A DNA stretch of 64,000 nucleotides from Bacteroidia bacterium (GCA_965279035.1 OZ257142.1:2624001-2688000), one strand, 5' to 3'; shown: positions 2 through 57,580, counted from the first letter of the stretch. Numbers and translations: made by a program. The notes: a model not told the origin generated them from the letters alone.

Positions 2-652
2 ATTGAGACCGGTAGCAAATGTAACTTGAACTTGTTGCGTACTATCACCAATACAATTGATAGGTTGTGCCGAAAGGATAGGTTGATCGAGAGCGCCAGT
101 GAGTTCGAATGCGGATGCATATACTGAATCGCAGGCGACATATTTACTCAAATTGATGATTGCCGTACTACTTGAACATGCTGGAATTGGAATAACAGCA
201 TCTATTTGAGGTGGAACGGGAGGAACAACTTCAGTCGTCCAATGAGCTTCCCAACCAGTACATGCAACACTGGCATCTGTTACAAAATGTAAAGTGATGC
301 ATCCACTTGTAATAGTATGACTAGGTGGTAAAATTGTGCCTCCGTAGGGTGGACCAATTTGAGGATCGAGATAGGATGAACCAGCGTGAAAGGTAAGTGT
401 GTCGGAACTTTGCTCAACACAAAATTCATCAAAACTTAAGGTCAATGTTCCGGGTGCATCTAAACAAATTGTAAATGATTCATTGGCATTGTGATGATAA
501 TTTAATCCATCACCCCCATCATCGTATAAAATCCCTTTGCATTCGGTGACAGTAGTATCCGACATATTGAATTCCAGTTGTGCTAATAGATTTTCTGCTC
601 CGCAAATCAGCAGAAAAAACAAGGCTAGCACATGACTGAAATTGATTTTCAT
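2..652 (-). CDS. Secreted CUB-domain protein, 3' end beyond window start (not in ORF track)
   Basis: Hand translation from ATG at 652 (ATGA overlap with the stop of 649-1095): MKINFSHVLALFFLLICGAENLLAQLEFNMSDTTVTECKGILYDDGGDGLNYHHNANESFTICLDAPGTLTLSFDEFCVEQSSDTLTFHAG...SGCITLHFVTDASVACTGWEAHW. Signal peptide plus bacterial CUB-like pattern; frame is open to the window edge. Confidence 0.8.
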   Translation of the reverse strand, partial: MKINFSHVLALFFLLICGAENLLAQLEFNMSDTTVTECKGILYDDGGDGLNYHHNANESFTICLDAPGTLTLSFDEFCVEQSSDTLTFHAGSSYLDPQIGPPYGGTILPPSHTITSGCITLHFVTDASVACTGWEAHWTTEVVPPVPPQIDAVIPIPACSSSTAIINLSKYVACDSVYASAFELTGALDQPILSAQPINCIGDSTQQVQVTFATGLN

Positions 653-1095
653 TGGCGCTTTATAACAATCGCGTCGGTTGTAACTGAAGTGCTCCAATCG
701 CCTTTTTGATCGCGTAGGCGGATGGTGAAATTGACCGATTCATAATCTCCGTTTCCTAGGAGAAATAAAGAATTGAGCTTTACTTTTATTTGTCCACGAA
801 TGAAGAGTTCTTTTCCATCGGGGCTTAATGGTTGAATGTGAAATAGATCGGCTGTACTTAAACGTGAGTCTTTGATTTCAAGATCGTTCACATCAGGATC
901 GATACTTCCGATATCGCCGTTAATATCTTCATATTGTATTGTAACAAAAGCAGAATCTTGAAATTGAATCAATGAATCGGGAGTGATAGATAAAACGCCA
1001 ATTACAGGTGCTGCTGGATTATTCACCTTTTCTTTTTCGCTGCAGGCAAAGAGTAGAAAGCAACTTAGAAATCCGAAAATAAGTGGCTTCATCAT
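649..1095 (-). CDS. Lipoprotein with DxNGD motif (cassette copy 1, gene E)
   Basis: Start reassigned to MMKPLIFGFLSCFLLFAC at 1095 (ATGA overlap with upstream stop); lipobox FAC-SEKEK; YEDINGDIG motif; paralogue of 56638-57081. Confidence 0.8.
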   Translation of the reverse strand: MMKPLIFGFLSCFLLFACSEKEKVNNPAAPVIGVLSITPDSLIQFQDSAFVTIQYEDINGDIGSIDPDVNDLEIKDSRLSTADLFHIQPLSPDGKELFIRGQIKVKLNSLFLLGNGDYESVNFTIRLRDQKGDWSTSVTTDAIVIKRQ

Positions 1096-2036
1096 TCTCC
1101 GATTTGAAATGAATAAAAATGTTTGATGTATTCGGCACTTCCGTTCGAAGGCATTTCGGTAGGTGATGAAGCTGCATCTTGCACATAAGCGCGAATAAAC
1201 CAAGGTTGTGTTCCTGAAATACCGGCGAGCGAAAGCGTGAATTTATGTCGAAATGGAACTTGATTTCCTGAATAGCCTAATTCTGAAACAGCATTTACTA
1301 AACTTAGATTTTGCTCAGCTACCGATGAAAAATCATTCATGTAAGAACCACATTTCACTTTTAAATACGTGAGTTGATCAATGGCGGTTTGATCATCTGT
1401 TATGGATAGCCAAACATCGACAGCACTTGTTCCAACAGGAATAACAATAGAACCTGAAGTTGAATTCCTTGGAAAAGGATTGGTACTTCCTACGGATGAA
1501 ATAAAGATTCCTTGAAGTTGTGGTGGTAAATCGAAATCAGCAGGAGCATTTCCGAAAATATCTTTGGCTCCGTTTTGAATCCAGTTTTGAATGTTTTCGA
1601 TGTATTGCGCTTTTTTGGAATTCCAATCGGAAGATGGTTCTAAAACCAAAGGCATTATGCCAGATTGTCCATCAATATCAATCATCAATCGTTGATATAA
1701 AATGGAATTTTGATAATCGCCCGGAACAACACGGTAGGTATAGTTTCCAGCAGGAGAATTCTTAATTATCGGACGTAATACAAGCGTATTGTAAGTGCTT
1801 TCGGGTGTTCTAAAATCAGGTTCAAAGGTTCCGTCGTGGCAGCCTGAATTGGCACAGGTAGGAGCAAAAATAGCTTGATGCAATCCTGCTAAAGAATTAG
1901 GATCGGGCACTGAATGATGATTCGATGTATCTGTTGGTTGGTTGACAATAAGGTCGTACGGATTTTCTTTTTCTGCCTTTTTACAAGCAAAAAGAAGAAG
2001 TAAACTAAAGAAAATTGCAAAGCGCATTGGAATCAT
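1092..2036 (-). CDS. Cytochrome c lipoprotein, PSCyt1-like, CX4CH haem motif (cassette copy 1, gene D)
   Basis: Lipobox LFAC-KKAEKE; IFAPTCANSGCHDG...RVVPGDYQNSILYQRL...IMP...WIQNGA matches the planctomycete cytochrome c domain pattern; paralogue of 55689-56633. Confidence 0.75.
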   Translation of the reverse strand: MIPMRFAIFFSLLLLFACKKAEKENPYDLIVNQPTDTSNHHSVPDPNSLAGLHQAIFAPTCANSGCHDGTFEPDFRTPESTYNTLVLRPIIKNSPAGNYTYRVVPGDYQNSILYQRLMIDIDGQSGIMPLVLEPSSDWNSKKAQYIENIQNWIQNGAKDIFGNAPADFDLPPQLQGIFISSVGSTNPFPRNSTSGSIVIPVGTSAVDVWLSITDDQTAIDQLTYLKVKCGSYMNDFSSVAEQNLSLVNAVSELGYSGNQVPFRHKFTLSLAGISGTQPWFIRAYVQDAASSPTEMPSNGSAEYIKHFYSFQIGE

Positions 2037-3375
2037 ATTCGTTCGAATAATGAGCGAGCGCCCGATTGAATTAAACCAGCATTCATCACTTCATCTTTTA
2101 CCCCTAAAATATCGGCAATGGTTGGAACATTATCGGAAGTAAAACCAACAGGATTTGATTCAGAACCAATCACCAAATTCGAAGGAACCGAAGGACCAGC
2201 CATCAAAGTAAACACACGAGAAGAATTCAAATCACTGTGATCATAAGCATACCAATCGTTCACGTCTTTAATTGGGTTGTGATTTAGATTCCTGCCACAT
2301 TCGGGAGAAGCAATGATGATGGTATCATTTGCCATTCCAGGAATTTGTGTTTGTAGATAATTCCAAAGATGACCAACAGCATGATCGGCACGATGAAGAG
2401 CACGTAAGTAACCTGTAAAGTCGCTATGGCAACCATCAACGCCACTTAAGTTGACAACTGTAATAGCCGGTTGAAAAACGCGCATCACTTCACAAGCAAA
2501 ACCAATCGAAATGGCATCGCTATCATCGGTAACTGAAGGAAATGGAATCGCACCTTGAGTTACACGATCGTAGGTATCGCGCATGAACTGTTTGATTTGT
2601 TGTTTTTCCTCTTCTGTATTTCCAAGTGAATCGCTCCCCTGCCCTACGCTATTAAAGCTTTGATCAAGAAAGTATTTCATTTGGTACATTGATTGAGTTC
2701 ATTTTCGGGATGATACACTTTCGCATTGGAAAGATGTTCAAAGCCAAGATTTCCAAATGTGACCGTTGGTGCAAAGAAATTCGCCCCGTATTGAGAACCG
2801 TAATTAGGATGATTGCTATAATTGAGCAATGGGATTGAGTTTCCGATTCCATTTCCGATAAACCAAGCATCTGTAGCTGAATAGCCACCGTGACGTCGGA
2901 GATATTCGAAAATTGTAGGATTAACGGGCTTTTGCTTTAAACCTTGAGTTGTTACAGTACTTCCTTGCAGCAGGTTATTCAATCCACCATAATGTCCGTT
3001 GGATTGGCTACCCACTTCTTTAAACAAAATACCTTGAGATTGTAGTGTTTGATTGAGAATGCGAGGTATTGGTGTTCCGCCAGAAGCTCCGCCACCTTGA
3101 TCGGTTCCGTAGACAATTTTATTGGTTGGAGCATCCCCATCGAGCATGTTGTACATTACATTACCTTCCCATGGCAAACCTTGAGAATCGCTGAGGTAGC
3201 GTTGAAGCACGGATTCTTGTTGACGAACACCGCCAGCAAAAAGTACATACACCACATGACTAGCAATTTGTCGCCCTGTAGAGGCAAATAATCTACCGGA
3301 TGGAAGTATGTAAGGAGCTGCAAAAGCCCCAGCAGAAGCGATTCCGGCAGCCCGGATAAAACGGCGACGATTCAT
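2033..3375 (-). pseudogene. Tat-exported DUF1501-like / alkaline phosphatase superfamily protein split by a frameshift near 2690 (cassette copy 1, gene C)
   Basis: ORFs 2677-3375 and 2033-2689 match the N- and C-terminal halves of the intact 437-aa paralogue at 54379-55692. Twin-arginine signal MNRRRFIRAAG; motifs LFAGGVR, DGCH and PECGR...YDH. Could be an assembly error rather than a true pseudogene. Confidence 0.7.
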
Positions 3376-3381
3376 AGGCGG

Positions 3382-3879
3382 CTAGTAATACAGGTATTCG
3401 TTTGATAATGCAAAGGAGAAATACACCATTTCGGCACTGAGTTGAGGATGTGCTTCAATGAAATTGCGAAACCAGGTAATTTCAGCTTCTGAGGGAATGC
3501 GTACAAAAAAGCGCTCGTAGGTATCACGAATGAATTTATCCGGATTGGAGCGCATGGTTGAATCGGTTGGAAGTGAAACCGAAGGATTATTCATGAAATT
3601 GGAAATCAGCACTTCGCGTCCGAGTTCTTTATCTCCAATGGATTCAAGACAATCGATAATTTCTACGAGTTTATTCCCCGATAAGGCTTGCTGAAAAAGG
3701 TTAGTATATAGAATCGAAACATATTGTTCCTGCGATTTGACTTTATTTTTCGCACCAATAGATGGATAGAGTTTGATTTGATTTAATTCAAATTGATCAG
3801 GCTCAGCTTCTTTTTTGCAACTGCTCGCCCCAACAAGAACAAACCATAAAATCACTATGAAAAATGATTGCTTTTTCAT
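3382..3879 (-). CDS. Helical lipoprotein with DUF1553-like C-terminus (cassette copy 1, gene B)
   Basis: Lipobox ASSC-KKEAE; TYERFFVRIPSEAE...FALSNEYLYY; paralogue of 53893-54375. Confidence 0.75.
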   Translation of the reverse strand: MKKQSFFIVILWFVLVGASSCKKEAEPDQFELNQIKLYPSIGAKNKVKSQEQYVSILYTNLFQQALSGNKLVEIIDCLESIGDKELGREVLISNFMNNPSVSLPTDSTMRSNPDKFIRDTYERFFVRIPSEAEITWFRNFIEAHPQLSAEMVYFSFALSNEYLYY

Positions 3880-3882
3880 TGT

Positions 3883-4812
3883 CTAGAAATTAGCGTATTC
3901 GTTTGTAATGATGAGTCTTTTTTGCAATGCTTTCAGATCGTTGTCTTGTCCGAATAGCAACATTTCATCGTAAATTTCTGCTGAACTTGGATTTCGTCCA
4001 AGGTAGGTTTGGAATGCCCAAATGATAGTTCCTTCGCGGCATTCACGGCTTTGAGTTATGAGAGAAACATACTCTGTTTTATTTTCACCACTGGAATTAA
4101 AGAGCACACCGGCAATATTACTTTCAACCATATTGTAGGCAATATCAAATTCGGCAGCACTCGGAAAACGATAAAACAAATCGTTGAAACTCGCATTGAC
4201 GAAATTGAAAGAATTCATATTGATGATGTCGTAAATCGCATTATTGATCATGGCTGCATATTGCTGTTGTAGGGTAATTTCGCCAGCCATATAACGGGTT
4301 GCTGAGAGTAATACATTTTCCATTAAGTGATAGCGTCCCATATCTTCTTCATAACCAGAAGTATTTCCACTTAATGAATCGCTAATGGCATTGCTTCGAT
4401 AAATTCCTGCTTGCTGAATTAATTGAGCTTCTGAAACACCATCAAGAAAGCGGATTTTACCTAAATCGTAGAGTCGTTTGTGATAGGCGAGTGTGTAGGA
4501 AGTATCGCCATCACGGAAGGTTGTATCCGTCATCAGTTTGTCAACCAAAGCAGCTCGAGCTTCAGCATTGGCATTTCCCGATTGTACAGCGGCAGTTTGA
4601 AGATCCATTTCAGCATCGGTTGGTTCACGCCCAATAAGATCGATGTATGTTCGATTGACGAAATTTCGAACCTTCACCGAGGATACTGAATTATAAGCTG
4701 GAGGAGTATTATTGGTATATAAATCTGAGCTTTCCTTTTTACAAGAGAAAACCAGCATGCTAGTCATTAGAAGAAATACAAAGAGAAGTCCTTGAGCTAT
4801 TTTCAACCGCAT
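3883..4812 (-). CDS. Helical lipoprotein with DUF1549/DUF1553-like repeats (cassette copy 1, gene A)
   Basis: Lipobox VFSC-KKESS; three R-x-P-[ST]-x-x-E units (RTYIDLIGREPTDAE, FNDLFYRFPSAAE, AFQTYLGRNPSSAE); paralogue of 53013-53888. Confidence 0.75.
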   Translation of the reverse strand: MRLKIAQGLLFVFLLMTSMLVFSCKKESSDLYTNNTPPAYNSVSSVKVRNFVNRTYIDLIGREPTDAEMDLQTAAVQSGNANAEARAALVDKLMTDTTFRDGDTSYTLAYHKRLYDLGKIRFLDGVSEAQLIQQAGIYRSNAISDSLSGNTSGYEEDMGRYHLMENVLLSATRYMAGEITLQQQYAAMINNAIYDIINMNSFNFVNASFNDLFYRFPSAAEFDIAYNMVESNIAGVLFNSSGENKTEYVSLITQSRECREGTIIWAFQTYLGRNPSSAEIYDEMLLFGQDNDLKALQKRLIITNEYANF

Positions 4813-5069: not shown

Positions 5070-5831
5070 TTATTCGTGTTCGATTTTGAAATAGAAACCA
5101 GAAGCTAAAAATGCAGGAAGCGCTCCAGCAAGTTTATTATCAATACGAGCGATGCTTTTTAAGGGAATAAAAGGAAGGTATGTTTCGATGATTGGGGCGA
5201 AAACATAAGCCTTTTTCACTTCGGTAATTTTCAAACCATATTGCTTTAATTCTCTTCGCATACGCGAAACGGTAAAGAAATTTACGTGAGGAGTTTCGTA
5301 ATTCTGGGAATAAGGTTCTTTCTTTCCGAGTACACGTTTCACTTTGAGGATGAAATTATTCAAACCCATTTTACGCATTAAATACAAAGGCTGCATAGCA
5401 ATTTCGAATGGACCACGACCATTAGGAACTGTGATAAGCAGCTTCATGTTTTTATCCGAATTCTTCCCTAAATAATCTAAGATTTCATGATATGGACCAA
5501 TATGTTCCAACACTTCGGTTAGAATGATGTATTCCATTCCAGCAAGAGGTGAATCTTGGAGGTATTCGAATTTAAAATGGACGTTAGGAAGTGTATTGGC
5601 AGCGATGGCAATATCTAGAGTAGGTTGATGAATATCAATGCCTAAAATTTCTGAATTATCGATTGTTCCAAGTGGAATAGTAACGTTTCCTGTTCCTGCA
5701 CCCACATCGAGCACTTTCACTTTAGAACCTGGAGTTCTTCCTTTATCTATTGTATCGTAAATCCATTCTAATCGACTTAAATGGCAAGGATATTCGGTGT
5801 ATTGGGTATACTTGATTGCTTCTTGTTTCAT
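5070..5831 (-). CDS. Class I SAM-dependent methyltransferase
   Basis: VLDVGAGTG motif I; ILTEVLEHI; LITVPN. Confidence 0.9.
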   Translation of the reverse strand: MKQEAIKYTQYTEYPCHLSRLEWIYDTIDKGRTPGSKVKVLDVGAGTGNVTIPLGTIDNSEILGIDIHQPTLDIAIAANTLPNVHFKFEYLQDSPLAGMEYIILTEVLEHIGPYHEILDYLGKNSDKNMKLLITVPNGRGPFEIAMQPLYLMRKMGLNNFILKVKRVLGKKEPYSQNYETPHVNFFTVSRMRRELKQYGLKITEVKKAYVFAPIIETYLPFIPLKSIARIDNKLAGALPAFLASGFYFKIEHE

Positions 5832-6622
5832 CAGATATTGATTCCTACTTTTTTAAGGTTGCGTTTGATGGTATTTTTCAAAGTTTCTTTTACGTCGGTT
5901 TTTACCTTTTTAATCAATCCTTCTTCGGGACGTGCTTTGAATACGGTATCATGAAAACGGGCAGCATCTTCACGAAGATCAGTGTAGAAATAACTGTAGA
6001 AAGATTTCCGTGTTTCACCTTCGGGAACATTGATTTTACTGTAACCGTGGTAAGAGATTTCATTGGTTTCGAAAATCACACAGCGATTTAATATTGGTAG
6101 GACTTTCTGTTCGAGTTTGCTTACATCTTTATTCCATAATTCAACGTGTCCACCATAGCTTTCTTGCCAATGTTTATTTAAAAAGATGAGCAGATTTACA
6201 CGACGATGGATATTTCGTGCAGTATGAATATTAAAATCAATATGCACATCGAGGTAAGAATCTTTTCCACCTTGATGAACACCCATCCCTAGAGCATCTT
6301 CAACAGAATATAAATTTTCAATCCCTGTAATGGTGCTGAGTGTTTTATAAAATTCTGGTTTATTGAGTTCTGCACGAAGTTGAGTAAATGCAGGATGAAA
6401 ATTCTCAAATCCAGATCCTTCAGATTTATGTTCATTTAATCCATGGTAATTCCGCGACATTAAATCAAATCCAGGGAAATTTTCATACAAGGTTTCAGCG
6501 AATGTAGGCTCCAAAAAATTGTCGATTACCAAATGACGAAACGGAAGACCAGCATCAAACTGTTTATGTAATGCCTGAAGATTTGCAGGTTCAAAAAATG
6601 CTGCAGGAATAATGGTTGACAT
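5831..6622 (-). CDS. 2OG-Fe(II) oxygenase
   Basis: PFRHLVIDNFL; HxD (HID); distal His (SYHG); RKS co-substrate motif; stop overlaps the next start. Confidence 0.9.
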   Translation of the reverse strand: MSTIIPAAFFEPANLQALHKQFDAGLPFRHLVIDNFLEPTFAETLYENFPGFDLMSRNYHGLNEHKSEGSGFENFHPAFTQLRAELNKPEFYKTLSTITGIENLYSVEDALGMGVHQGGKDSYLDVHIDFNIHTARNIHRRVNLLIFLNKHWQESYGGHVELWNKDVSKLEQKVLPILNRCVIFETNEISYHGYSKINVPEGETRKSFYSYFYTDLREDAARFHDTVFKARPEEGLIKKVKTDVKETLKNTIKRNLKKVGINI

Positions 6623-9174: not shown

Positions 9175-11370
9175 TTAATTCTTAAGTATTTTGTTAGAAT
9201 AAATGAGCCTTCCAGAATGCACAATTTGAATTACATATAAACCAGAATCCAAAGAACTGAGGTCGAAACACTGTGTTTTCCCTTGTGATATTTTATTCAC
9301 GAAAATTACTTTTCCGATAATGTCCAAACAACGAATGTTTGCATTTTCAGGAATTCCATCTATGTAAAGAATATTAGTACTTGGTTGAGGATAGATTTTA
9401 ATTGATTCGGAATTTTCAATTTCAATTCCTAATGAATTAAATGAAAATGGATTTGATGTTTTTTCACAACCCGATGAATTGGTTACTTTGACAGTATAAT
9501 CACCATTTTCAGTAGGTGTATAATTATATTGATTCGCACCTGATATCGGATTTCCATTCAAATACCATTGGTAACTAGAAAAACCAGTTCCAGCATTTAA
9601 GTGATTTCCAACTAAGGTAATGTTTGGGTTTGGTAAAGGTTGAGATGCGACATTTGCTGTTAAAGTAATTTCGCAACCTTCGGTAGTTTGAGCTGTAACA
9701 CTTTGAGTTCCTGAACTAGTAACTACAAGCTGTGCATTGTTAATTGAATTATTCCACACTGGATTTTGAAAATCTCCACTTAATGATAATGTAGTTGATT
9801 CTCCTGCACAGAATGTTAAGTTACCTGTAATTAAAAACGTAATGGTTGAATACGTAACAGTTAGCGATGCAGTTCCACGACACCCTTCAGCACTTGATGC
9901 AGATACATTGTAAATTCCGGGTGTTGATACATCAATCGAATTGCTTGTACCTAAAGCACTTGTTCCTTTAGACCAACTAAAATTATCTCCACTACTTGCT
10001 GAAAGAGTATGGGTAGTTTGAGGACAAAATGGAATAGGCGATTCGGAAATAATGCTAACAGGTAAATTACAATAAGCTAATTCATATGCACCCAAATCGC
10101 ATCTCGGTCCGAAAATGCGTGTTGCATTATCTAAATCGTGATCGGCTGGAGCAACAATTTCAGCATTCACACCTAAATCTATTACAGGAGAAGTTGCTAA
10201 AACATGATAATCTAAACCATCTAATGTAAATGGAGCTAAAACAGTTAACCCAGGATTTACAAAAGTTGGATTCGATGAAATGTTTGCGGTACCAGAAGTA
10301 AATCCTCCTTGAATAAGGCAATCATGTGCATTTGCATTGGGATACATGGATGCAACTCCTCCATTATCCCAAAAAATTGAATTGGCAATTTCAGTTAAAG
10401 AATTAACTACAATTGGATATTCGATTCCTGTATTTTGAGTTTGTCTATTATGAGCAAAAGTGCAGTTGATAATGCTATGGGCTTGTCCGTTTGACGAAGG
10501 CGGTATATACATAATTGAAATACGTGGAGCATAATTTCCAATAAACAAGGAGTTACTCAGGATCATGGAATTATCATACAAATGATAAATAGCACCACTA
10601 TTCGTTTGTGCGGTATTTCCATCAAAAATGCAACGATCAATATAAGATACTCCACCCGATAAGTACATTGCACCGCCAGTTGATCCTGCGAGATTGGAAG
10701 TGAATTTACAGTCAGTAATGCGTGCTGTTCCACTTCGAATTTGAAGTGCTCCTCCAATACCATCAGTGAAGTTTGATAGAAAAGTACAATTGGTTAAGGT
10801 TAAAGTTCCTCCATTGTGAGTTAGTGCTCCAGCAGCATCTAAAGCGAAATTGTTGATGAAAGTACAATTAGAAATAGTTGGTGAACTAGAACTTAAATAA
10901 ACTCCTCCAGCCAATGAACTGGAATGACCATCGCTGATTCTAAAACCATCGAGTCGGGTTTGGCTACCAACATTATCTCCACCAACAACATGAATTGAAT
11001 TATCGGTTGTTGATCCTCCATTGCCAATATTCCCACTTAGAATACTAATGTTAGTAAGAAAATTTCGCTCTGAGAGTAAACTTTCAGAACCATTAAAACC
11101 ACCATAAAGTGATACCCCATTTACTAGTAAAAAGGAAATTGATGTAGAGGTCGTAGTTGTTGGTTTATACGTTCCAGCCGCTACCCAAATCTCATCTCCA
11201 AAAGTTGAATTCCCTAGAGCTGTTTGTAAATCAACAAACGCATCTGTCCATGAAATGCCTGAATTTGCTCCACTTACTGATGCGTTCACATACCAACGAG
11301 TAGCGCTACATTGGAGAGATAAAAGGAATAGAATAGAGGTAAAAAATCGTTTCATTGGCTTGATTTTCAA
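9175..11370 (-). CDS. T9SS type A-secreted protein with parallel beta-helix (polymorphic-membrane-protein-like) repeats
   Basis: WTDAFVDLQTAL...GDEIWVAAGTYKP N-terminus; GGA/FxxN repeats; DLGAYE; C-terminal IYPQP...SGLYVIQI. True start may be MKRFF at 11355. Confidence 0.85.
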   Translation of the reverse strand: MKIKPMKRFFTSILFLLSLQCSATRWYVNASVSGANSGISWTDAFVDLQTALGNSTFGDEIWVAAGTYKPTTTTSTSISFLLVNGVSLYGGFNGSESLLSERNFLTNISILSGNIGNGGSTTDNSIHVVGGDNVGSQTRLDGFRISDGHSSSLAGGVYLSSSSPTISNCTFINNFALDAAGALTHNGGTLTLTNCTFLSNFTDGIGGALQIRSGTARITDCKFTSNLAGSTGGAMYLSGGVSYIDRCIFDGNTAQTNSGAIYHLYDNSMILSNSLFIGNYAPRISIMYIPPSSNGQAHSIINCTFAHNRQTQNTGIEYPIVVNSLTEIANSIFWDNGGVASMYPNANAHDCLIQGGFTSGTANISSNPTFVNPGLTVLAPFTLDGLDYHVLATSPVIDLGVNAEIVAPADHDLDNATRIFGPRCDLGAYELAYCNLPVSIISESPIPFCPQTTHTLSASSGDNFSWSKGTSALGTSNSIDVSTPGIYNVSASSAEGCRGTASLTVTYSTITFLITGNLTFCAGESTTLSLSGDFQNPVWNNSINNAQLVVTSSGTQSVTAQTTEGCEITLTANVASQPLPNPNITLVGNHLNAGTGFSSYQWYLNGNPISGANQYNYTPTENGDYTVKVTNSSGCEKTSNPFSFNSLGIEIENSESIKIYPQPSTNILYIDGIPENANIRCLDIIGKVIFVNKISQGKTQCFDLSSLDSGLYVIQIVHSGRLIYSNKILKN

Positions 11371-11918: not shown

Positions 11919-14900
11919 TCAATCGTGCTTCCTTTTCACTGCTCGATAATAAATGATTGGAAAAATGAGTAGTGTAAACAATGTTGCAGTTACTAAACCT
12001 CCAATGATAACAATAGCTAAAGGTTTTTGGGATTCTGATCCAATACCACTTGATATTGCTGCTGGAAATAATCCAATAGCTGCCATCAAAGCCGTCATAA
12101 CAACTGGTCGTGTTCGCACTTTTACAGCATGAAATATGGATGAAACCAATCCTTCTTTTGCTGCAATGTTTTGTTGAAATTGGGAGATTAGAATAACTCC
12201 ATTTTGAATACAAATTCCGAATAGTGCTATAAATCCAACACCTGCCGAAATCCCGAAATTCATTCCGGTAAAATGTAAAGCAGCTATACCACCAATCAAT
12301 GCAAAAGGAACATTTGCCAAGACCAATGTAGCATCCTTGACATTGCCAAATAAAATAAAAAGCAAAACAAAAATTAATATTAAACTAATAGGTACTACTT
12401 GTGCTAATCTACTTGTAGCACGTACCTGATTTTCGAATTCACCCGTCCATCCAATCTTATATCCAGTAGGTAATTTAATGTTCTTTGTTACACGTGCTTG
12501 TGCATCTGCAATGGTGCTTCCTAAATCACGTTCACGGATTGAAAATTTCACTCCTATAAATCGTTTCGTATTATCACGATAGATAAACGCTGGTCCTGTG
12601 ACTTTTCGAATTGTAGCAATTTCTTGTAGTGGAATTTTATCGCCTCGTAATGTTGGAACCATCAAATGCATGATGTCTTCTTCGTTTTTCCGATAGTCTT
12701 TTTGATACCGAATTCGGATGTCGAATTTCTTTTCACCCTCGTATTTTTCCGTTGCAGTTTTTCCACCTATCGCCATCTCAATCATACTCTGAGCATCCGC
12801 TTTCTGCACTCCATAAATGGCCATTTTCTCTTCATCCAATAGCACTGAAATTTCGGGCTGTCCAACGTTTCGCAAAATTCCTACATCCTTAATTCCTGGT
12901 ACATCTTGAATGGAGCTAATTACTTTATTAGCAATTTCATCGAGTTTATCTAAATCATCCCCATAAATTTTAACCGCATTTGAAGCATTGATTCCAGCTA
13001 CCGATTCAGCTACATTATCAATAATTGGTTGGGAATAATTATACACGATACCTTGATAATTTTTCAGCCGGTGATCCATTTCTTCCACCAGATCATCCAT
13101 ACTAATCTTACGATCCCACTCTTTTTTAGGCTTCAAATTCACTTGCATCTGAACGTAGTAAAATCCACTTGGATCAGTACCATCGTTGCTTCTTCCTGTT
13201 TGTGAAAGCACTCCATTTACTTCAGGAAATGCCATTAATTCTTTTCTTAAAACAGTAACTGTTTTTATAGTTTCACTTAAGGATGAACTCATGGGTAATT
13301 TAGCTTCAACCCACAATGCTCCTTCATTTAATGGAGGCAAAAATTCCGTTCCTAACCAGCGCACTGAGAATAGAGATACAGCTAGTATCGCAATGGAAAC
13401 AATCAAAGAACTTCGTTTATGTTTGAAAGTAAATCGAAAGGCTTTCTCAACTCCTTTATTGATAAATTCAACTAATACATTATGCTTTTCACGCACATTC
13501 TTTTTAAGAAGAATTGAAACTAAAAGAGGCACTAAAGTCAAGGTAAATATGAGTGCACCCAATAAGGCAAAACCGAGCGTAAATGCTAAAGGAGAAAACA
13601 TTTTTCCCTCTACTTTTTGAAAGGCAAAAATGGGCAGCAAGGCGGATATAATAATTAATTTAGAAAAGAATACAGCCTTACCTAAACCAGCTCCCGTTTG
13701 TTTAATTAATCCCAATTTCGATAAACGATTGAAACGCTCCACTCCTACTCGATTTTGCAAATGGTCGAGCGCAACAAATAATCCTTCCACCATGACGACA
13801 GCACCGTCGATGATAATTCCAAAATCAACAGCTCCAAGTGATAGTAAATTTGCACTCATTCCCTTGAGTTTGAGACAGAGAAATGCAAATAAAAGTGCGA
13901 GTGGAATGATGATGGAAACAATGAGCGTTGTTCGCCAATCGGCCATGAAAAGAAATACAATGACTGTAACCAGAATAATTCCCTCTAATAAATTATGCAT
14001 CACTGTTTCGGTGCAATAACTCATTAAATTATCCCGATCATAAAATGTTTCCATCTTCACATCGGGAGGAAGAACACCATGGTTTAATTCTTCAATTTTT
14101 TCTTTTAATCTACCTAAAACTTCGCTCGGATTTTCTCCTTTGCGCATTACCACAATGCCTTCAACAACATCATCACTTTTATTTAATCCAACTTGTCCTA
14201 CACGCGGAGCGCTACTTTCGAGCACATGAGCAATGTTTTTTACAAGGATTGGATTATCATTTAATTCAGCAACTATGGTATTTTCAATATCAGCTATCGA
14301 CGTTAATAATCCCAAACCACGCACAACGTATGCTTGTCCGTTTTTTTCGATTACATCTCCACCAACATTTAAATTGGCTTTAGAAACGGCTTCAAATACC
14401 TGCTGTGGAGTTAAATCGTATTTATTGAGTTTAACTGGATCGACAGATATTTCGTAAATTTTTTCTTGTCCACCAAAAGCAACAACATCTGCAATACCTG
14501 GAACAGCGCGTAATTGACGATCGATCACCCAATTTTGTATGGTGAGTAAATCGCGTGTATCTCGTGTATCCGATTTTAAAACATACCGAAATATTTCACC
14601 CGTTGGACCATAAGGTGGCTGAACATCGGGCTCAACGGCATCAGGCAGCTGAACATTCCGCAATTGATTATTTACCTGTTGACGTGCAAAAAAATCATCT
14701 ACATCATCTTCAAAAATGATTTTAATTACCGACAAACCAAACATACTAATGCTTCGCACATTGGTTTTACGTTGCACCGAATTCATCGAAATTTCGATCG
14801 GTGTAGTTACAAAACGCTCAATTTCTTCAGCCGAACGACCATTCCATTCGGTTACAATAATGATTTGCGTATTGGTAACATCGGGAAATGCTTCAATAGG

Positions 14901-15011
14901 TAATTGTTGAAAGCTGATAAATCCAGCAATGACAAGTAATCCAACCCAGAAAAAGGTAAACACCTTATTTTTCAATGAAAAACTAATGATGTTCCTGATA
15001 AAACGATTCAT
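11919..15011 (-). CDS. CusA/CzcA family heavy-metal efflux RND transporter
   Basis: 1030 aa; IEAFPDVTN; SLGAVDFGIIIDGAVVMVE; RPVVMTALMAAIG; QKPLAIVIIGGL. Confidence 0.95.
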   Translation of the reverse strand: MNRFIRNIISFSLKNKVFTFFWVGLLVIAGFISFQQLPIEAFPDVTNTQIIIVTEWNGRSAEEIERFVTTPIEISMNSVQRKTNVRSISMFGLSVIKIIFEDDVDDFFARQQVNNQLRNVQLPDAVEPDVQPPYGPTGEIFRYVLKSDTRDTRDLLTIQNWVIDRQLRAVPGIADVVAFGGQEKIYEISVDPVKLNKYDLTPQQVFEAVSKANLNVGGDVIEKNGQAYVVRGLGLLTSIADIENTIVAELNDNPILVKNIAHVLESSAPRVGQVGLNKSDDVVEGIVVMRKGENPSEVLGRLKEKIEELNHGVLPPDVKMETFYDRDNLMSYCTETVMHNLLEGIILVTVIVFLFMADWRTTLIVSIIIPLALLFAFLCLKLKGMSANLLSLGAVDFGIIIDGAVVMVEGLFVALDHLQNRVGVERFNRLSKLGLIKQTGAGLGKAVFFSKLIIISALLPIFAFQKVEGKMFSPLAFTLGFALLGALIFTLTLVPLLVSILLKKNVREKHNVLVEFINKGVEKAFRFTFKHKRSSLIVSIAILAVSLFSVRWLGTEFLPPLNEGALWVEAKLPMSSSLSETIKTVTVLRKELMAFPEVNGVLSQTGRSNDGTDPSGFYYVQMQVNLKPKKEWDRKISMDDLVEEMDHRLKNYQGIVYNYSQPIIDNVAESVAGINASNAVKIYGDDLDKLDEIANKVISSIQDVPGIKDVGILRNVGQPEISVLLDEEKMAIYGVQKADAQSMIEMAIGGKTATEKYEGEKKFDIRIRYQKDYRKNEEDIMHLMVPTLRGDKIPLQEIATIRKVTGPAFIYRDNTKRFIGVKFSIRERDLGSTIADAQARVTKNIKLPTGYKIGWTGEFENQVRATSRLAQVVPISLILIFVLLFILFGNVKDATLVLANVPFALIGGIAALHFTGMNFGISAGVGFIALFGICIQNGVILISQFQQNIAAKEGLVSSIFHAVKVRTRPVVMTALMAAIGLFPAAISSGIGSESQKPLAIVIIGGLVTATLFTLLIFPIIYYRAVKRKHD

Positions 15012-15014
15012 AAA

Positions 15015-16106
15015 TCAGTCGTTTAATGCATCGTAAATCATGAGCCCGTTTTTCGAGATCACCTTTTCGCCTTCTTTAATTCCAGTAGTCACCCAAGTGA
15101 TATCACCCAATTGACGATAAACTTCGACCTGTCGCGTTTCCACATTATTTCGGTCTTTAAAAACCATTATCCAATTGCGGCTTTTGTCAAAAATGACCGA
15201 AGATGAAGGAACCGCCAACAACTTTTTATTTTCAGAATAAGATACATTCACCGTAGCGCTCATATCCGGTTTTAACAAATAGGTTGGATTGGCAATTTTC
15301 ACCATCACTTTCATGGCTTTGGTAGATGGATCAATCGCATTAAAAATCCGATCTACTTTTCCATGAAATACAGTATCAGGATAGCTTATTGTACTAATAT
15401 CCGCTTCATAGCCAGGTTGAATCAGCGAGATATCCGATTCGTTCACGTTCGCTAATGCCCATACTTCATCAATACGTGCAATAGAAAATATCACATCCGA
15501 TTTATCACTTCGAAATTGTTCGTTGGGTGTGATGTTTTTGGAAACTACAAATCCACTGATAGGTGCGGTAATATTGTAAACAGAACCTTGCTTGATATTA
15601 TAAATAGCAAAGACTTCATTGATACGATTCAATTCTGCTTGGGCTTTTTCTAATTCTTTTTGTGCCGATTTAACATCGCGTTCTGAATTCAATTTTCCTT
15701 CGAATAATTCGCGTGCTACCTGAAGATTTTTTTCAGCTAAAGCAGCATCAGCTCGCGCATCCAATCGTTGACGCTCAAAATCGGCAATTTCAGAACTACG
15801 CACTACAGCTAAAACTTGTCCTTGCTCAACATAATCGCCCAATTCCGTATTAATCTTGATCACATTTCCTCCTACAATCGGATACACTTCGGCTAATTTG
15901 TTATTGTCGGCCGATATCTTCCCGAATAGTCGCAATACGTTTTTTACTTCTTTATAATGAGCCTCGGTAAATTCGCAACGTTGCATCATGGTATCGCTCA
16001 TAGTAAAAGCAACACGCTGCTCATCGGGCGATTTCTTGGTACACGAAATCCATGTAATTGAAATAAGGAATGCTGTTAATATCCTGATGATTGATTTCAT
16101 GATCAA
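15015..16106 (-). CDS. RND efflux membrane fusion protein (lipoprotein)
   Basis: Lipobox WISC; GDYVEQGQVLA; ITAPISG; LKPDM; lies between tolC and the RND gene. Confidence 0.93.
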   Translation of the reverse strand: MIMKSIIRILTAFLISITWISCTKKSPDEQRVAFTMSDTMMQRCEFTEAHYKEVKNVLRLFGKISADNNKLAEVYPIVGGNVIKINTELGDYVEQGQVLAVVRSSEIADFERQRLDARADAALAEKNLQVARELFEGKLNSERDVKSAQKELEKAQAELNRINEVFAIYNIKQGSVYNITAPISGFVVSKNITPNEQFRSDKSDVIFSIARIDEVWALANVNESDISLIQPGYEADISTISYPDTVFHGKVDRIFNAIDPSTKAMKVMVKIANPTYLLKPDMSATVNVSYSENKKLLAVPSSSVIFDKSRNWIMVFKDRNNVETRQVEVYRQLGDITWVTTGIKEGEKVISKNGLMIYDALND

Positions 16107-17350
16107 TAAATAGTACTTGCTGTCGTGTAATTAATTGTTGCTGCCGAGATGGCCAACTGTGTCCGTATGCGCTCAATCTCCGCTTGAGATTCATTGTAAG
16201 CCTCAAAGAAATCGACAAACTCCAAAATGGTAATATTCTTCTTTTGAAAATTATCATTCACTCCTTGAATCACTTCTTCAAAATCTTTCGAATAAATCTT
16301 ATTCACTTTATTAAATTCCAAAATGCTGAGTTGCATCATTTTCCAAGCACTGAGCACTTCCGTTTTTACAGCCAATTTCTTCTGATCTGTTTGAAGTTTT
16401 ATACTTTCTAAACCGGCAGCTGCGGCTCGAATATTTCCTTTGTTACGATCCCAAATAGGTAAAGGAATTCCAAATCCTACATTGACTTGATTGGTAAATG
16501 CTCCTCCGCGTTGATCATAGCTTCCAATCAAATGCAAATCAGGAATCGCATTTTGTTTTTGTAATCGTAAGTTGATCGCTCCTTGATCATTTGCACACAA
16601 CGAATAAAGTAAATCAGGACGAGTACTTTCGGCCTTTTGTAGAAGCTCTTCGATGGCTAAAGTTTGATTGATTTTAGAATAATAATTTTCTTGAATTTGA
16701 GGTAGAATGACCGCCGTTGTTTGCAACAAAATTTGAAGTTGCGCCTGCTCTTGAGCCGATTGCATAGCTACCTCAGAACGGTTATTATTGAGTTTGAGAT
16801 AAACCGTTTTCAATCGTACCACATCTTTCATAGGTACATTTCCTTTCTCTGCTTGTCGGTTATAGGTCGAAATGAGCGTATCTAAAATGACCAATTGACG
16901 CTCATATTTTTTTAGCAAACTGTTTTGTTGATTCAGTCTGAAAAAGCTTCCCTGCATCTGAAAGCGAAGATTTCTCAATAAATCGGTAAATGAGAATTTC
17001 GCTAATTGAACATTGCCTTTAGCTAATTCAATTTCTGATTTACGCTTTCCTCCAATTAAAATCAATTGATCCAAAGCCATCGACTTTTGTCCAGTTGCTC
17101 CCGTATGGAAATAGCGTTTATTCTGATTGTCGATCGCATTCAGATCGAGCGTAAATTGTGGATTGGGATAGGATTTCGCTTGAATTATCAATGCTTCTTC
17201 AGCCGTAATCGAATACTGTGAAGCAAGAAGTAACAGGTTATTTTTTAGAAATAAGCTATCCGCTTGAACGATATCAAGTGAAAGTGTGTCCTGAGAAAAT
17301 GTGTGAATGGAAAACGTTGAAAGCAATAAAAAAAATGCACTCCTTAACAT
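16103..17350 (-). CDS. TolC family outer-membrane efflux protein (CzcC-like)
   Basis: PNPQF, LIGGKR, GIPLPIWDRNKGNI; start taken at MLRSAFF (17350). Confidence 0.9.
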   Translation of the reverse strand: MLRSAFFLLLSTFSIHTFSQDTLSLDIVQADSLFLKNNLLLLASQYSITAEEALIIQAKSYPNPQFTLDLNAIDNQNKRYFHTGATGQKSMALDQLILIGGKRKSEIELAKGNVQLAKFSFTDLLRNLRFQMQGSFFRLNQQNSLLKKYERQLVILDTLISTYNRQAEKGNVPMKDVVRLKTVYLKLNNNRSEVAMQSAQEQAQLQILLQTTAVILPQIQENYYSKINQTLAIEELLQKAESTRPDLLYSLCANDQGAINLRLQKQNAIPDLHLIGSYDQRGGAFTNQVNVGFGIPLPIWDRNKGNIRAAAAGLESIKLQTDQKKLAVKTEVLSAWKMMQLSILEFNKVNKIYSKDFEEVIQGVNDNFQKKNITILEFVDFFEAYNESQAEIERIRTQLAISAATINYTTASTIY

Positions 17351-17373
17351 GGCGCAAATCTCCAATTGGAATG

Positions 17374-17411
17374 CTTAAGAAATCCTTAAGTAATATAAAT
17401 ATGTCCTTAAG
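17374..17411 (-). promoter_or_regulatory. Helically phased CTTAAG repeats, candidate OmpR-family binding site
   Basis: CTTAAG at 17374, 17385 and 17406 (spacings 11 and 21) between the sensor kinase and tolC. Confidence 0.5.
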
Positions 17412-17428
17412 TTTTATTCTGAACGTGA

Positions 17429-18799
17429 TTATCTGTTTAACACGATTATAAACTGATTCAAGCCACTTTTCGAAACAGAATACTGAATTGTTCCTTTATG
17501 TAATTCTATAATTCGGGCAGTCATCACTAAGCCTAATCCAATTCCTGCTTTTTTACGACTATTACTTCCTCTAAAGAAATGGCCAAATAACTTGGTTTGA
17601 TCATCCTGTGTTAAAACTTCTCCATTATTCTGAATACGCAATTCAACCGATTTAGTATTCATTTCCAAATAAACCATTACGTGTTTATCTTCAGAATAAT
17701 TAACGGCATTTTTCAAGATATTACTTAATGCAATTTTTAGCATGCGTTCGCTTCCGGGAATTGTTAACTCACCCGAGTCGTGAACATTTTCATCCAATTC
17801 AAAATCAATCCTCACTTCAGGATCAAGCAATTGAATTTCATCAGTGCATTCAAAAATCACATCCATTAGCCGAACTTCCCCTTCAAAGACACGTTCTGGA
17901 ATGGATTCATATTTTGAAATTTCAAGTAAGGTGTTAATCACTCCTGCCATCTGCATCAATCCATTCCGTTGAAATTCCATGCTCTCGCGAAGCAGTTCAA
18001 CCGTTTTCTGATTTAATCCGCGCTCAACATTCGACATCAAAACAGCTATGGGCGTTTTTAATTCATGCGATATATGATGAATCAGATTTTTTTGAAACTG
18101 AAACGATTCATCAACACGGTCAAGCATCTCATTAAAACCAATGGCTAATGAAGTTATTTCATCGTGTGTTGGCGGCACTTCAACTTTTCTGAAATTGTTG
18201 GCAGTAATTTGTTCAACATCGCCCGTTAATTTCAAAATAGGGCGAGTTAATTGTTTGGTGATATAAAAAATCAATCCCGAAACTAAAATAATTGAAGCAA
18301 AAAAGATGAAGACTAATATCCAAAAAAGAAATTCCAATTTGTCTTTTCCGTAACGATCATACGCTTTCCCAATAGCAAAATATTCTTTTCCCTTTTCATG
18401 AATTACATGTGCATACACATCAAATTCCCCCTCTGTATACGTGATTTCATCTTCTCCTTGTTGTAAGCGTTCAACAACTTCTTCGGGAAACAACACTTTG
18501 GTGTCATCAACGCTACTATATATTAAAGTTCCCGTTGAATCAAAAAGCAGAATCTTTTCTTCATATAAACTATTGATAATATTACTATCAAAAACCCTCA
18601 ATAAATCCTGATCAATTTCTTCAACCTCAAACAGCAACTTAAATGTAGTTGATGTTTTATCTTTCAATCTCTCTAAAAATTCTTGCTGCCGGTATTGCGC
18701 CGATAAAGAATAAACACCAAATAATGCAAGCCCAAGGACAATCAAAAAAGTTGTCGAAAACAAGAGTATAATGCGTTGCCTAAGCTTCATCTTCAGCAC
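17429..18799 (-). CDS. HAMP-domain sensor histidine kinase
   Basis: Two TM segments, HAMP, ISHELKTP H-box, NILKNAVNYS, GIGLGL. Confidence 0.95.
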   Translation of the reverse strand: MLKMKLRQRIILLFSTTFLIVLGLALFGVYSLSAQYRQQEFLERLKDKTSTTFKLLFEVEEIDQDLLRVFDSNIINSLYEEKILLFDSTGTLIYSSVDDTKVLFPEEVVERLQQGEDEITYTEGEFDVYAHVIHEKGKEYFAIGKAYDRYGKDKLEFLFWILVFIFFASIILVSGLIFYITKQLTRPILKLTGDVEQITANNFRKVEVPPTHDEITSLAIGFNEMLDRVDESFQFQKNLIHHISHELKTPIAVLMSNVERGLNQKTVELLRESMEFQRNGLMQMAGVINTLLEISKYESIPERVFEGEVRLMDVIFECTDEIQLLDPEVRIDFELDENVHDSGELTIPGSERMLKIALSNILKNAVNYSEDKHVMVYLEMNTKSVELRIQNNGEVLTQDDQTKLFGHFFRGSNSRKKAGIGLGLVMTARIIELHKGTIQYSVSKSGLNQFIIVLNR

Positions 18800-46942: not shown

Positions 46943-47075
46943 AACAGTTTGCTAAATATACTAAAAAAATTTCGACTACATAAAATAGTTCCTTGATTAA
47001 ACAGTATATTTTATCAAATCAATAAAATATACCTGTATCCTTACTGTTATAATAGATTTTGAAGGTTATTAACAA

Positions 47076-49265: not shown

Positions 49266-49317
49266 AATAAATTCAAAAAAAGAAACAACTAATGTACTCT
49301 GTTTTAATAAAGAACAA

Positions 49318-52965: not shown

Positions 52966-52998
52966 TCCAGGCAGGAAAGCACCAATTTTCTGCCTGGA
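52966..52998 (+). terminator. Hairpin between dipeptidase and cassette copy 2 (weak U-tract)
   Basis: TCCAGGCAGGAAA / TTTTCTGCCTGGA arms. Confidence 0.55.
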
Positions 52999-57109: not shown

Positions 57110-57580
57110 ATGAATAAACTCCTTCAGTTAATTACGTTAAGTTGCGTTTTACTCGTTTGTTCTTGTTCGAGTTATGATCAAGTAACTGCTCCAACTGTAA
57201 GTGGTATCTCGGGATTTAAGATTGGGAAGCTGTCAGAAGGAAAACTTCCTTTAAGTTTCAATACAACCTTAAAAAATCCTGACAAACTTAAGTTTCATGT
57301 GAAACGAGTAAATCTGGAATTGATATTCGCAGGTGTGCGTGTGGCTGAGTTGAAGTCGGAACGCAAAATGAAAATTCGTCGACAAATTGAACCTGAACTT
57401 CATTGGGAAGTGACTGCCGAACTAGCACCATTACTCAAAAAACCGGGTGCATTATTAGGGACGTTATTTCGTGGTAAAATTGATTTCGAAGTGAGTGGTA
57501 CCATGACCATTGGCAAATTTCTTTGGTCAAAAACAGTTCCTGTGAAATTGAAATTACCGGTGGAGATTCCTGTGTTTTGA
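57110..57580 (+). CDS. LEA_2/WHy-like lipoprotein
   Basis: Lipobox CSC; NP motif (LKNPDK) and beta-rich pattern typical of LEA type 2. Confidence 0.6.
   Translation: MNKLLQLITLSCVLLVCSCSSYDQVTAPTVSGISGFKIGKLSEGKLPLSFNTTLKNPDKLKFHVKRVNLELIFAGVRVAELKSERKMKIRRQIEPELHWEVTAELAPLLKKPGALLGTLFRGKIDFEVSGTMTIGKFLWSKTVPVKLKLPVEIPVF

Follow-up and report, generated by a model that had tools for sequence, protein, structure and literature searches.

A 64,000-nucleotide stretch of a Bacteroidia bacterium genome (GCA_965279035.1 OZ257142.1:2624001-2688000; hereafter the window) raises the question of why one genome should hold the same five-gene cassette twice, and what such a cassette might do. The open reading frame (ORF) listing of the window shows two collinear gene sets, A-B-C-D-E, on opposite strands with 48.2 kb between the copies. 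We find that the copies are two ancient subfamilies of one operon and not a recent duplicate. We consider it probable (about 0.6) that they are paralogous forms of a conserved Bacteroidota envelope operon that is akin, in anatomy and kinship, to the DUF1501 modules of other bacteria; its biochemical role we infer.

Two ancient subfamilies of one operon

The initial annotation had proposed a second, diverged, collinear copy of the cassette about 48 kb away on the opposite strand. Pairwise alignment bore this out. All five gene pairs aligned significantly in BLASTP, at 23% identity for A (E 1e-27), 32% for B (E 9e-29), 34% for D (E 5e-44) and 29% for E (E 3e-18), while C2 matched the two halves into which the record divides C1 at 40% and 39% (E 5e-42 and 4e-39). 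Every shared motif quoted in that annotation is present in the translations of both copies. No third copy was found within the window among ORFs of at least 70 amino acids (aa).

In both copies, adjacent genes overlap or sit 3-4 bases apart. C2 and D2 overlap by 4 bases, and so do D1 (stop) and E1 (start); a further gene, F, likewise overlaps the E1 stop with its start. Gene ends that touch or overlap in this way give the cassette the layout of a translationally coupled operon. The view of the cassette as a five-gene unit thus needs one amendment: A-E are kept as a block, but copy 1 runs on into F as a sixth gene. A promoter scan returned 17 sites against 18 expected, Bacteroidota promoters lying outside the models of the scan.

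The same order recurs across related genomes. A search with the C2 protein returned 1608 homologues among 8000 candidates scored, and those with names were called hypothetical, alkaline phosphatase family or similar, from metagenome-assembled genomes of Bacteroidia and Flavobacteriales. A locus scan, using an alignment of ten full-length C sequences and one genome per species, gave 254 places encoding a relative, of which 80 were kept. All 80 were of the copy-2 type (type 2), with a type-2 query outscoring a type-1 query in 294 of 294 gene comparisons. The A-B-C-D-E order was complete in 70 of these loci and was followed in nine more whose contigs are cut off. One 21 kb locus (L056) holds a lone type-2 C without A, B, D or E despite 10 kb of contig on each side, the sole such case among the 80. 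Type-1 loci were obtained through whole-genome searches; all five genes were present in 22 of the 24 fetched (the exceptions being L178, at a contig end, and L146, with no A match) and in each of 18 fetched type-2 loci. Together these counts agree with the earlier proposal that the genes form one unit. No cassette of mixed type occurred in the 42 fetched loci of other genomes.

Both types are widespread among relatives of this genome. The relatives G004 and G005 carry the two together, and in the order-level group an intact type-1 C was found in 9 of 19 genomes, eight of which also have type 2. Matches to C occurred in 88 of 300 genomes in a class-level sample, with a bimodal score distribution; counted by hand, 44 genomes had type 1, 60 had a type-2-like form, 21 had both and 5 had fragments only. 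Identity to the reference protein P0121 was 52-100% for type-1 C and 37-44% for type-2-like C. This sample is the group of G005 and includes 10 of the 19 order-level genomes, so that the 29% holds for the relatives' own group and not for all Bacteroidia. At phylum level, D was found in 6 of 301 genomes and C in the same six; the two genes adjoin each other wherever coordinates were given. It follows that the cassette is confined to a limited section of Bacteroidota, and that the class-level group is either small or drawn close to the relatives. A profile of D matched 271 cluster representatives at E <= 1e-30 among 1.84 billion. The phylum-level sample also contains a C gene that is 36% identical to type 1 and adjoins a D match covering part of the profile (G431:C6:70089-71921); it may represent a third, more distant type.

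Gene trees divide the cassettes in the same way throughout. In each of five trees (FastTree, 43-45 rows each, unrooted), the type label changes once, across a branch with support of 99-100. Within type 2, distance matrices were correlated for all ten gene pairs (at most 1 of 300 shuffles reached the observed correlation); within type 1 this held for seven of ten pairs, A-C, A-E and C-E being weaker. Such congruence speaks for common descent as a block, not for co-evolution beyond shared history. Within the 10-11 genomes that hold both types, between-type identity was 22-31% for A, 30-37% for B, 37-43% for C, 28-35% for D and 27-36% for E. These values are about equal from genome to genome, so the split predates these genomes. 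Between types, the matrices were correlated for A (r 0.55, 0 of 1000 shuffles) and B (r 0.36, 10 of 1000). Against the nearest orthologue (L007), ratios of nonsynonymous to synonymous substitution were 0.09 for A2, 0.03 for B2 and 0.03 for C2, indicating purifying selection; synonymous sites were saturated in most orthologue pairs, even at 55-85% identity.

These results uphold the initial suggestion of an old duplication or an independent acquisition in which the five genes stayed together. The split began as either one, the two being indistinguishable with unrooted trees. The same lack of a root leaves room for a very old acquisition of one type. Nothing was found in favour of the idea that the second copy arose by recent duplication in this genome or by recent transfer from a distant donor. 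We regard a recent origin as hardly credible: the paralogues are only 23-40% identical, the same two types recur at similar divergence in the 10-11 other genomes, and each type occupies one side of a strongly supported branch. The flanks are also syntenic in relatives, with a methyltransferase gene upstream and F downstream for type 1 and an M20 peptidase gene upstream for type 2.

A different doubt concerns copy 1, which could be a decaying remnant with C1 a frameshifted pseudogene, leaving copy 2 as the only functional one. As deposited, C1 lies in two frames owing to one missing base, and an annotation pipeline would call it a pseudogene; the base is absent relative to two relatives, which have one extra C at the break and a single frame of 449 residues. 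The length of about 447 aa first given for C accordingly fails for the record as it stands and is recovered, in a single frame, when one base is inserted. In contigs of four public runs (depth 115-620), one extra G (plus strand) follows position 2690, and the sequence is otherwise identical over 801 bases (2300-3100); the runs come from one sample of one study, were compared as contigs and not raw reads, and are possibly the source of the record itself. No internal stop occurs in the 44 type-1 C genes of the class-level sample (hand count) or in the nine of the order-level sample, and A1, B1, D1 and E1 are intact. Since the run contigs carry the missing base and the type-1 orthologues are free of internal stops, we judge C1 to be almost certainly intact at 447 residues, the split being a one-base error of the record. 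Decay of copy 1 is very improbable.

Products, coordinates and flanking genes

C carries visible twin arginines at its N-terminus, TAT_signal models scoring below their cut-off. An AlphaFold2 model of C2 (predicted local distance difference test score (pLDDT) 83.9, predicted template-modelling score 0.83) matched 455 chains of the PDB in Foldseek at E <= 0.001, and the matches listed all belong to the alkaline-phosphatase superfamily. The best were sulfatases, LtaS/LtaP, nucleotide pyrophosphatase/phosphodiesterase (NPP) and alkaline phosphatase (probability 1.00, E down to 4e-11), together with an uncharacterised Vibrio protein, at template-modelling (TM) scores of 0.37-0.48 and identities of 9-16%. 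As modelled, C has an alkaline-phosphatase-superfamily fold behind a twin-arginine N-terminus, the mark of twin-arginine translocation (Tat). Ten residues are invariant in all 43 C sequences of both types (H44, R55, N66, H116, D307, H310, G353, R354, D371 and H372), and E351 and N355 each deviate in a single type-1 sequence. At position 352, all 19 type-2 sequences have His; of the 24 type-1 sequences, 19 have Cys and 5 His. The stretch P-Y-I-L-P-S-G-R-L-F-A is unusually conserved and identical in both copies. Pfam leaves weak traces in the family: Phosphodiest in 12 of 43 members, Sulfatase in 4 and DUF1501 in 3 (best E 0.0032).

Profile comparison links C with DUF1501 proteins. We relied on hhalign only where motifs align and controls score low. 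Compared with 25 Bacteroidia DUF1501 proteins, C scored 91% (E 1e-6) over 91 columns, or 390 in extended form, and the alignment pairs V-D-x-C-H with F-D-T-H, P-E-(H/C)-G-R-N with S-E-F-G-R-R and D-H with D-H-G. The extended alignment also matches the twin arginines and a Gly-Gly after the first strand, at the place of the first metal-binding Asp in other members of the superfamily. C thus appears to be distantly DUF1501-like.

D is marked by a Cys-x4-Cys-His motif of the haem-attachment type and a later Met-Pro. C65, C70, H71, M133, P134 and W153 are invariant in an alignment of 40 sequences, which argues that haem binding has been kept. The D profile gave weak matches to the dihaem cytochrome FoxE in both of its domains (E 0.006), D1 and D2 weakly matched the model of the SO2930 dihaem cytochrome, and a language-model atlas led from D to clusters with PSCyt1 (0.87-0.90; a lead only). 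Against seven PSCyt1 domains, which were the matches from five large Bacteroidia genomes, residues 40-175 of D scored 98.2% in hhalign (E 3e-14, 95 columns); the controls A, B, C, E and DUF1800 all scored below 1%. Cys-His, P-G..S.L, M-P and W-I..G-A are aligned between the two, and 3 of the 7 PSCyt1 domains have the Cys-x4-Cys-His spacing of D. On these comparisons, the N-terminal domain of D is homologous to the PSCyt1 'planctomycete cytochrome c' domains. Pfam-positive PSCyt1 domains in Bacteroidia genomes (L220, L223 and L224, in G224 and G069) have Cys-x4-Cys-His and not the usual Cys-x2-Cys-His, in open frames of 130-274 aa. The D2 model (pLDDT 88.8) has a confident C-terminal beta-sandwich, for which the fold search gave generic Ig-like and beta-sandwich matches (best E 9e-4, TM-score 0.25). 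Shorter forms of D occur in four type-1 loci, at 176-178 residues (L148 8749-9279, L154 8986-9522) and 270 residues (L151 8850-9662, L153 6354-7166).

A2 matches Pfam DUF4214 (PF13946) with 33.6 bits (E 4.1e-8), above the 23.2-bit cut-off, which A1 (14.2 bits, E 0.047) and B1 (16.8 bits) do not reach. In A1 there is also a weak Pfam match to PSCyt2 (E 0.002), and its orthologues in loci L087 and L088 are 55-57% identical. The A profile matched Gloeobacter phycobilisome linker repeats and ApcH in the PDB (E 1.3e-7 to 1.1e-5). The N-terminal parts of A and B are alike (hhalign 94%, signal peptides included). From these matches, A and B are recognisable as predicted helical lipoproteins built of DUF4214/phycobilisome-linker-like units. 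Family alignments, used here in place of a dedicated lipoprotein predictor, show a lipoprotein Cys with little or no variation at C19 of A, C17 of B, C22 of D and C16 of E.

E, a lipoprotein some 147 residues long, has a conserved acidic loop, Y-x-D-G-D-G-D-L-G, and no Pfam family. F is complete in the relatives L087 and L088, where it measures 1167 and 1192 aa, carries CUB, SprB, PKD and CHU_C domains, and scores 42.4 and 34.8 bits for CHU_C against a cut-off of 27. Judged by these domains, F is a large surface protein with a CHU_C signal for type IX secretion. In A2, D2 and E2, the residues right after the lipid-modified Cys are K-E-E, K-D-E and K-D-D. The motif K-(D/E)2 is described as a surface-export signal of Bacteroidetes lipoproteins in the part of the source considered here (PMC5080379).

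Cassette genes and associated features in the window.
Feature	Product or description	Coordinates	Strand	Basis
A1	Type-1 helical lipoprotein, 309 aa	3883-4812	minus	ORF; BLASTP against A2
B1	Type-1 small helical lipoprotein, 165 aa	3382-3879	minus	ORF; BLASTP against B2; lipobox Cys invariant
C1	Type-1 alkaline-phosphatase-superfamily enzyme (as modelled for C2) with Tat signal	2033-3375	minus	ORFs 2677-3375 and 2033-2689, one missing base near 2690
D1	Type-1 lipoprotein, PSCyt1-like cytochrome c domain (predicted) and beta-sandwich, 314 aa	1092-2036	minus	BLASTP against D2; invariant haem-motif positions
E1	Type-1 small acidic-loop lipoprotein, 148 aa counted from the second Met-Met start (longer ORF from a TTG start, 649-1203)	649-1095	minus	ORF; BLASTP against E2
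F1	N-terminal 217 residues of the sixth type-1 gene, which continues beyond the start of the window	2-652	minus	Open-ended ORF 2-697; start at 652 is the first Met ahead of the signal peptide, by reading
A2	Type-2 helical lipoprotein, 291 aa	53013-53888	plus	Pfam DUF4214
B2	Type-2 small helical lipoprotein, 160 aa	53893-54375	plus	ORF; BLASTP against B1
C2	Type-2 alkaline-phosphatase-superfamily enzyme (as modelled), Tat signal, 437 aa	54379-55692	plus	Twin-arginine N-terminus; AlphaFold2/Foldseek
D2	Type-2 lipoprotein, PSCyt1-like domain (about residues 45-165) and C-terminal beta-sandwich, 314 aa	55689-56633	plus	hhalign; AlphaFold2
E2	Type-2 small lipoprotein with DGDGD-like loop, 147 aa	56638-57081	plus	ORF; BLASTP against E1
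Hairpin	Terminator-like, 13 pairs; separates A2 from the M20 peptidase gene ahead of it	52966-52998	plus	Consensus scan

Upstream of copy 1 lie a methyltransferase gene and a 2-oxoglutarate-Fe(II) oxygenase gene (5070-6622, minus). The methyltransferase gene also precedes the type-1 cassette in L087 and, farther off, in L088, and in no other fetched type-1 locus. Downstream of copy 2, a LEA_2-domain lipoprotein gene (57110-57580) starts 28 bases past E2; it follows E in closer relatives only (L003-L010, L018; weakly L043, L062). Three tandem genes for PKD and CHU_C proteins of 1452, 729 and 705 aa (42584-51435, minus) lie just ahead of the M20 peptidase gene and copy 2; closer relatives, L003-L009 among them, have homologues on the same side. 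Elsewhere, the window holds an operon for resistance-nodulation-division (RND) efflux (AcrB-type pump, HlyD-type adaptor and outer-membrane factor) adjoining a histidine kinase gene (11919-18799, minus), proteins with a Por_Secre_tail sorting domain at 9175-11370 and 33198-35573, and mutL at 20961-22784.

Candidate function and its alternatives

What might such an operon do? In our proposal, the products of A-E would form one complex tethered to an envelope membrane, with C as the catalytic subunit. C would fold, and perhaps take up metal, in the cytoplasm before leaving through Tat. Its substrate, in the envelope or external, would be acted on at an ester-like or anionic group by means of H44, R55, N66, H116, D307, H310, E351, R354, N355, D371 and H372. 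A and B would hold or present C or its substrate, while D, with one c-type haem, would pass electrons to or from the reaction or sense redox state. The two types would share one chemistry and differ in target, type 1 being tied to its own secreted protein F, and the operon would work like the DUF1501 modules, spread over separate lipoproteins. That haem assists C in a reaction at such an ester-like or anionic group is a tentative suggestion. To our knowledge, haem-coupled chemistry of this sort has not been described for the alkaline-phosphatase superfamily. The proposal in full is speculative and rather unlikely to hold in every part: a five-subunit lipoprotein-tethered complex that couples a c-type haem domain to an alkaline-phosphatase-fold catalytic subunit, an unfused Bacteroidota form of DUF1501/PSCyt machinery, with type 1 acting on or with its own type IX-secreted protein. 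The initial annotation had raised the possibility that the paralogues are specialised; the backing for this consists solely of the sixth gene of type 1 and the His/Cys difference at one conserved site of C. Structure prediction of an A+B+C complex speaks neither for nor against binding: with C as partner it scored 0.80-0.82, falling to 0.00 with C replaced, yet giving 0.80 with A replaced.

Several observations weigh against reading the cassette as a haem-bearing relative of the DUF1501 modules. None of the 43 C members reaches the 27-bit cut-off of Pfam DUF1501 (PF07394), which finds no match in C2, the C1 halves or P0121; in the same genomes, true DUF1501 proteins reach 98-114 bits. Pfam likewise gave no match in any of 40 D members, with PSCyt1 (PF07635, cut-off 22 bits) at 0 of 40 at E <= 1. 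At the position of the superfamily's first metal-binding Asp, C has Ala-Gly-Gly, and it has no recognised nucleophile. The D2 model is least confident around the haem motif, and Foldseek recognised its beta-sandwich only. We also considered A as a member of PSCyt2/PSD1, on Pfam E-values of 0.002 and 0.087 and an Atlas lead of 0.89, and rejected it, because hhalign gave 1.7% and only a short motif of the 'R..y.D.lGR.Pt..E' type is held in common. hhalign itself is untrustworthy at the 90% level, as a plainly spurious A-D match came out at 92%, and the scores of A-B and B-D are too high because of signal peptides. The export signals of A2, D2 and E2 would place these lipoproteins outside the cell, whereas Tat would deliver C to the periplasm. 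Between types, distance matrices were weakly correlated for C and D, and not at all for E. Catalysis by C is a candidate activity, covalent haem in D is predicted from motif and homology, and the mutual binding of A-E is something we infer.

Two other roles compete with this proposal. The cassette could serve ordinary nutrient scavenging, with C as a secreted hydrolase of phosphoesters, phosphonates or sulfate esters, lipoproteins that bind the substrate, and a D domain that has no redox role. The fold matches of C to sulfatases, NPP and alkaline phosphatases agree with this, as do its weak Pfam matches to Phosphodiest and Sulfatase and one to the PehA hydrolase model (E 4.5e-5); Tat export is, moreover, usual for PhoD- and PhoX-type phosphatases. 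We nevertheless think scavenging unlikely, given that C has neither the superfamily's first Asp nor, in alignment, the Cys/Ser-x-Pro-x-Arg sulfatase motif, that no transporter or SusC/SusD-like gene is conserved beside the cassette in the fetched loci, and that the haem-attachment motif and Met-Pro of D do not vary in 40 of 40 sequences. Alternatively, the cassette might serve the cell surface and type IX secretion by modifying, maturing or anchoring proteins such as F, with other cargo for the type-2 copy. F, with its CHU_C domain, stands directly downstream of E in 21 of 24 type-1 loci, its start overlapping the E stop, and the three CHU_C/PKD genes near copy 2 have some match in 22 of 98 type-2 loci; the export motifs of A2, D2 and E2 would fit as well. 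F is found with type 1 only, however, and type 2 lacks a coupled cargo gene. The CHU_C neighbours of copy 2 lie on the other strand, beyond the M20 gene and the hairpin, and are shared by closer relatives only; CHU_C proteins are common in these genomes, which makes a chance neighbourhood likely. As the cassette also contains no known type IX component, a dedicated role in surface secretion seems distinctly improbable, and we retain the reading of an envelope operon related to the DUF1501 modules.

Relation to known modules

The closest parallels come from bacteria of the Planctomycetes-Verrucomicrobia-Chlamydiae (PVC) group. There, many conserved clusters combine Tat-signal DUF1501 proteins with PSCyt1, PSCyt2 and PSD1 proteins, and one, a four-gene form, also includes a second PSCyt1 protein and a PPC-like (beta-sandwich-like) accessory protein; a role in membrane targeting and electron transport was proposed for these clusters, the part of the source considered here stating their function as unknown (Kamneva et al. 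2012, PMC3542564). Likewise, a study of freshwater Verrucomicrobia says, in its passage on these genes, that nothing is known of their function (He et al. 2017 preprint, 10.1101/150078). The cassette resembles these modules of Planctomycetes, Verrucomicrobia and Lentisphaerae in placing a Tat-signal alkaline-phosphatase-superfamily enzyme next to a protein with a PSCyt1 domain, in its extra helical parts, in a secreted beta-sandwich-like accessory protein as found in the four-gene form, and in the presence of several paralogous clusters per genome. It differs in that C and D fall under the Pfam cut-offs, A and B are DUF4214/linker-like and not PSCyt2/PSD1, and the cytochrome domain sits on its own lipoprotein and is not fused to helical domains. 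It is found, moreover, in Bacteroidota, with lipoproteins as four of its five products, with E added and with type 1 coupled to a type IX cargo.

A second known arrangement, and a widespread one, is the DUF1800-DUF1501 pair, noted beside bacterial chitin synthases and stated, in the passage on it, to be of unknown function (PMC5122149); DUF1800 proteins are described, again in the part of the source considered, as resembling the ApcE linker (PMC12981691). Like the cassette, the pair places a Tat-signal DUF1501-type enzyme directly downstream of a phycobilisome-linker-like helical protein. The pair consists of two genes, however, and lacks the cytochrome and the small lipoprotein; similarity to DUF1800 is weak in A (hhalign 76%, 75 columns) and absent in B (0.2%). 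DUF1800 was present in 36 of 100 class-level genomes, with DUF1501 directly downstream in most of 30 fetched loci. Canonical DUF1800-DUF1501 pairs in relatives span 6638-9226 of L186 (G005:C3:197000-211000) and 6892-9549 of L187. In G005, a pair lies about 42 kb from the type-1 cassette, so that pair and cassette coexist and are not replacements for each other.

With the solved enzymes of the alkaline-phosphatase superfamily (sulfatases, LtaS/LtaP, NPP and phosphonate monoester hydrolases), C shares the overall fold and, within the core's C-terminal half, the conserved Asp/His pairs; it differs from them in having no first Asp, formylglycine motif or recognised nucleophile. We found no earlier description of this Bacteroidota cassette in the parts considered of the literature on DUF1501, DUF1800 and PSCyt. 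Supplements lay outside that search; Bacteroidetes DUF1501 loci with a bearing on novelty may be listed in two of them, Figure S14 of PMC3542564 and Fig. S7 of the freshwater Verrucomicrobia study.

Few gene modules of Planctomycetes and Verrucomicrobia have been multiplied as much as those that join DUF1501 enzymes to PSCyt or DUF1800 partners. The same parts now appear in Bacteroidota, where their form escapes present Pfam models, and five families so far annotated as hypothetical receive names. No new principle is demonstrated; the use of the cassette is as a tractable two-copy model for specialists in DUF1501/PSCyt modules or in the Bacteroidota envelope. Here separate genes encode the cytochrome domain, the helical parts and the small accessory protein, a genome carries only two copies and not dozens, and one of the two is linked to a defined secreted protein, which makes single-gene deletions and pairwise binding tests feasible. 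Should the haem-coupled complex prove true, these bacteria, of which an isolate seems to have been sequenced, would offer a simple two-operon system for learning what DUF1501 modules do.

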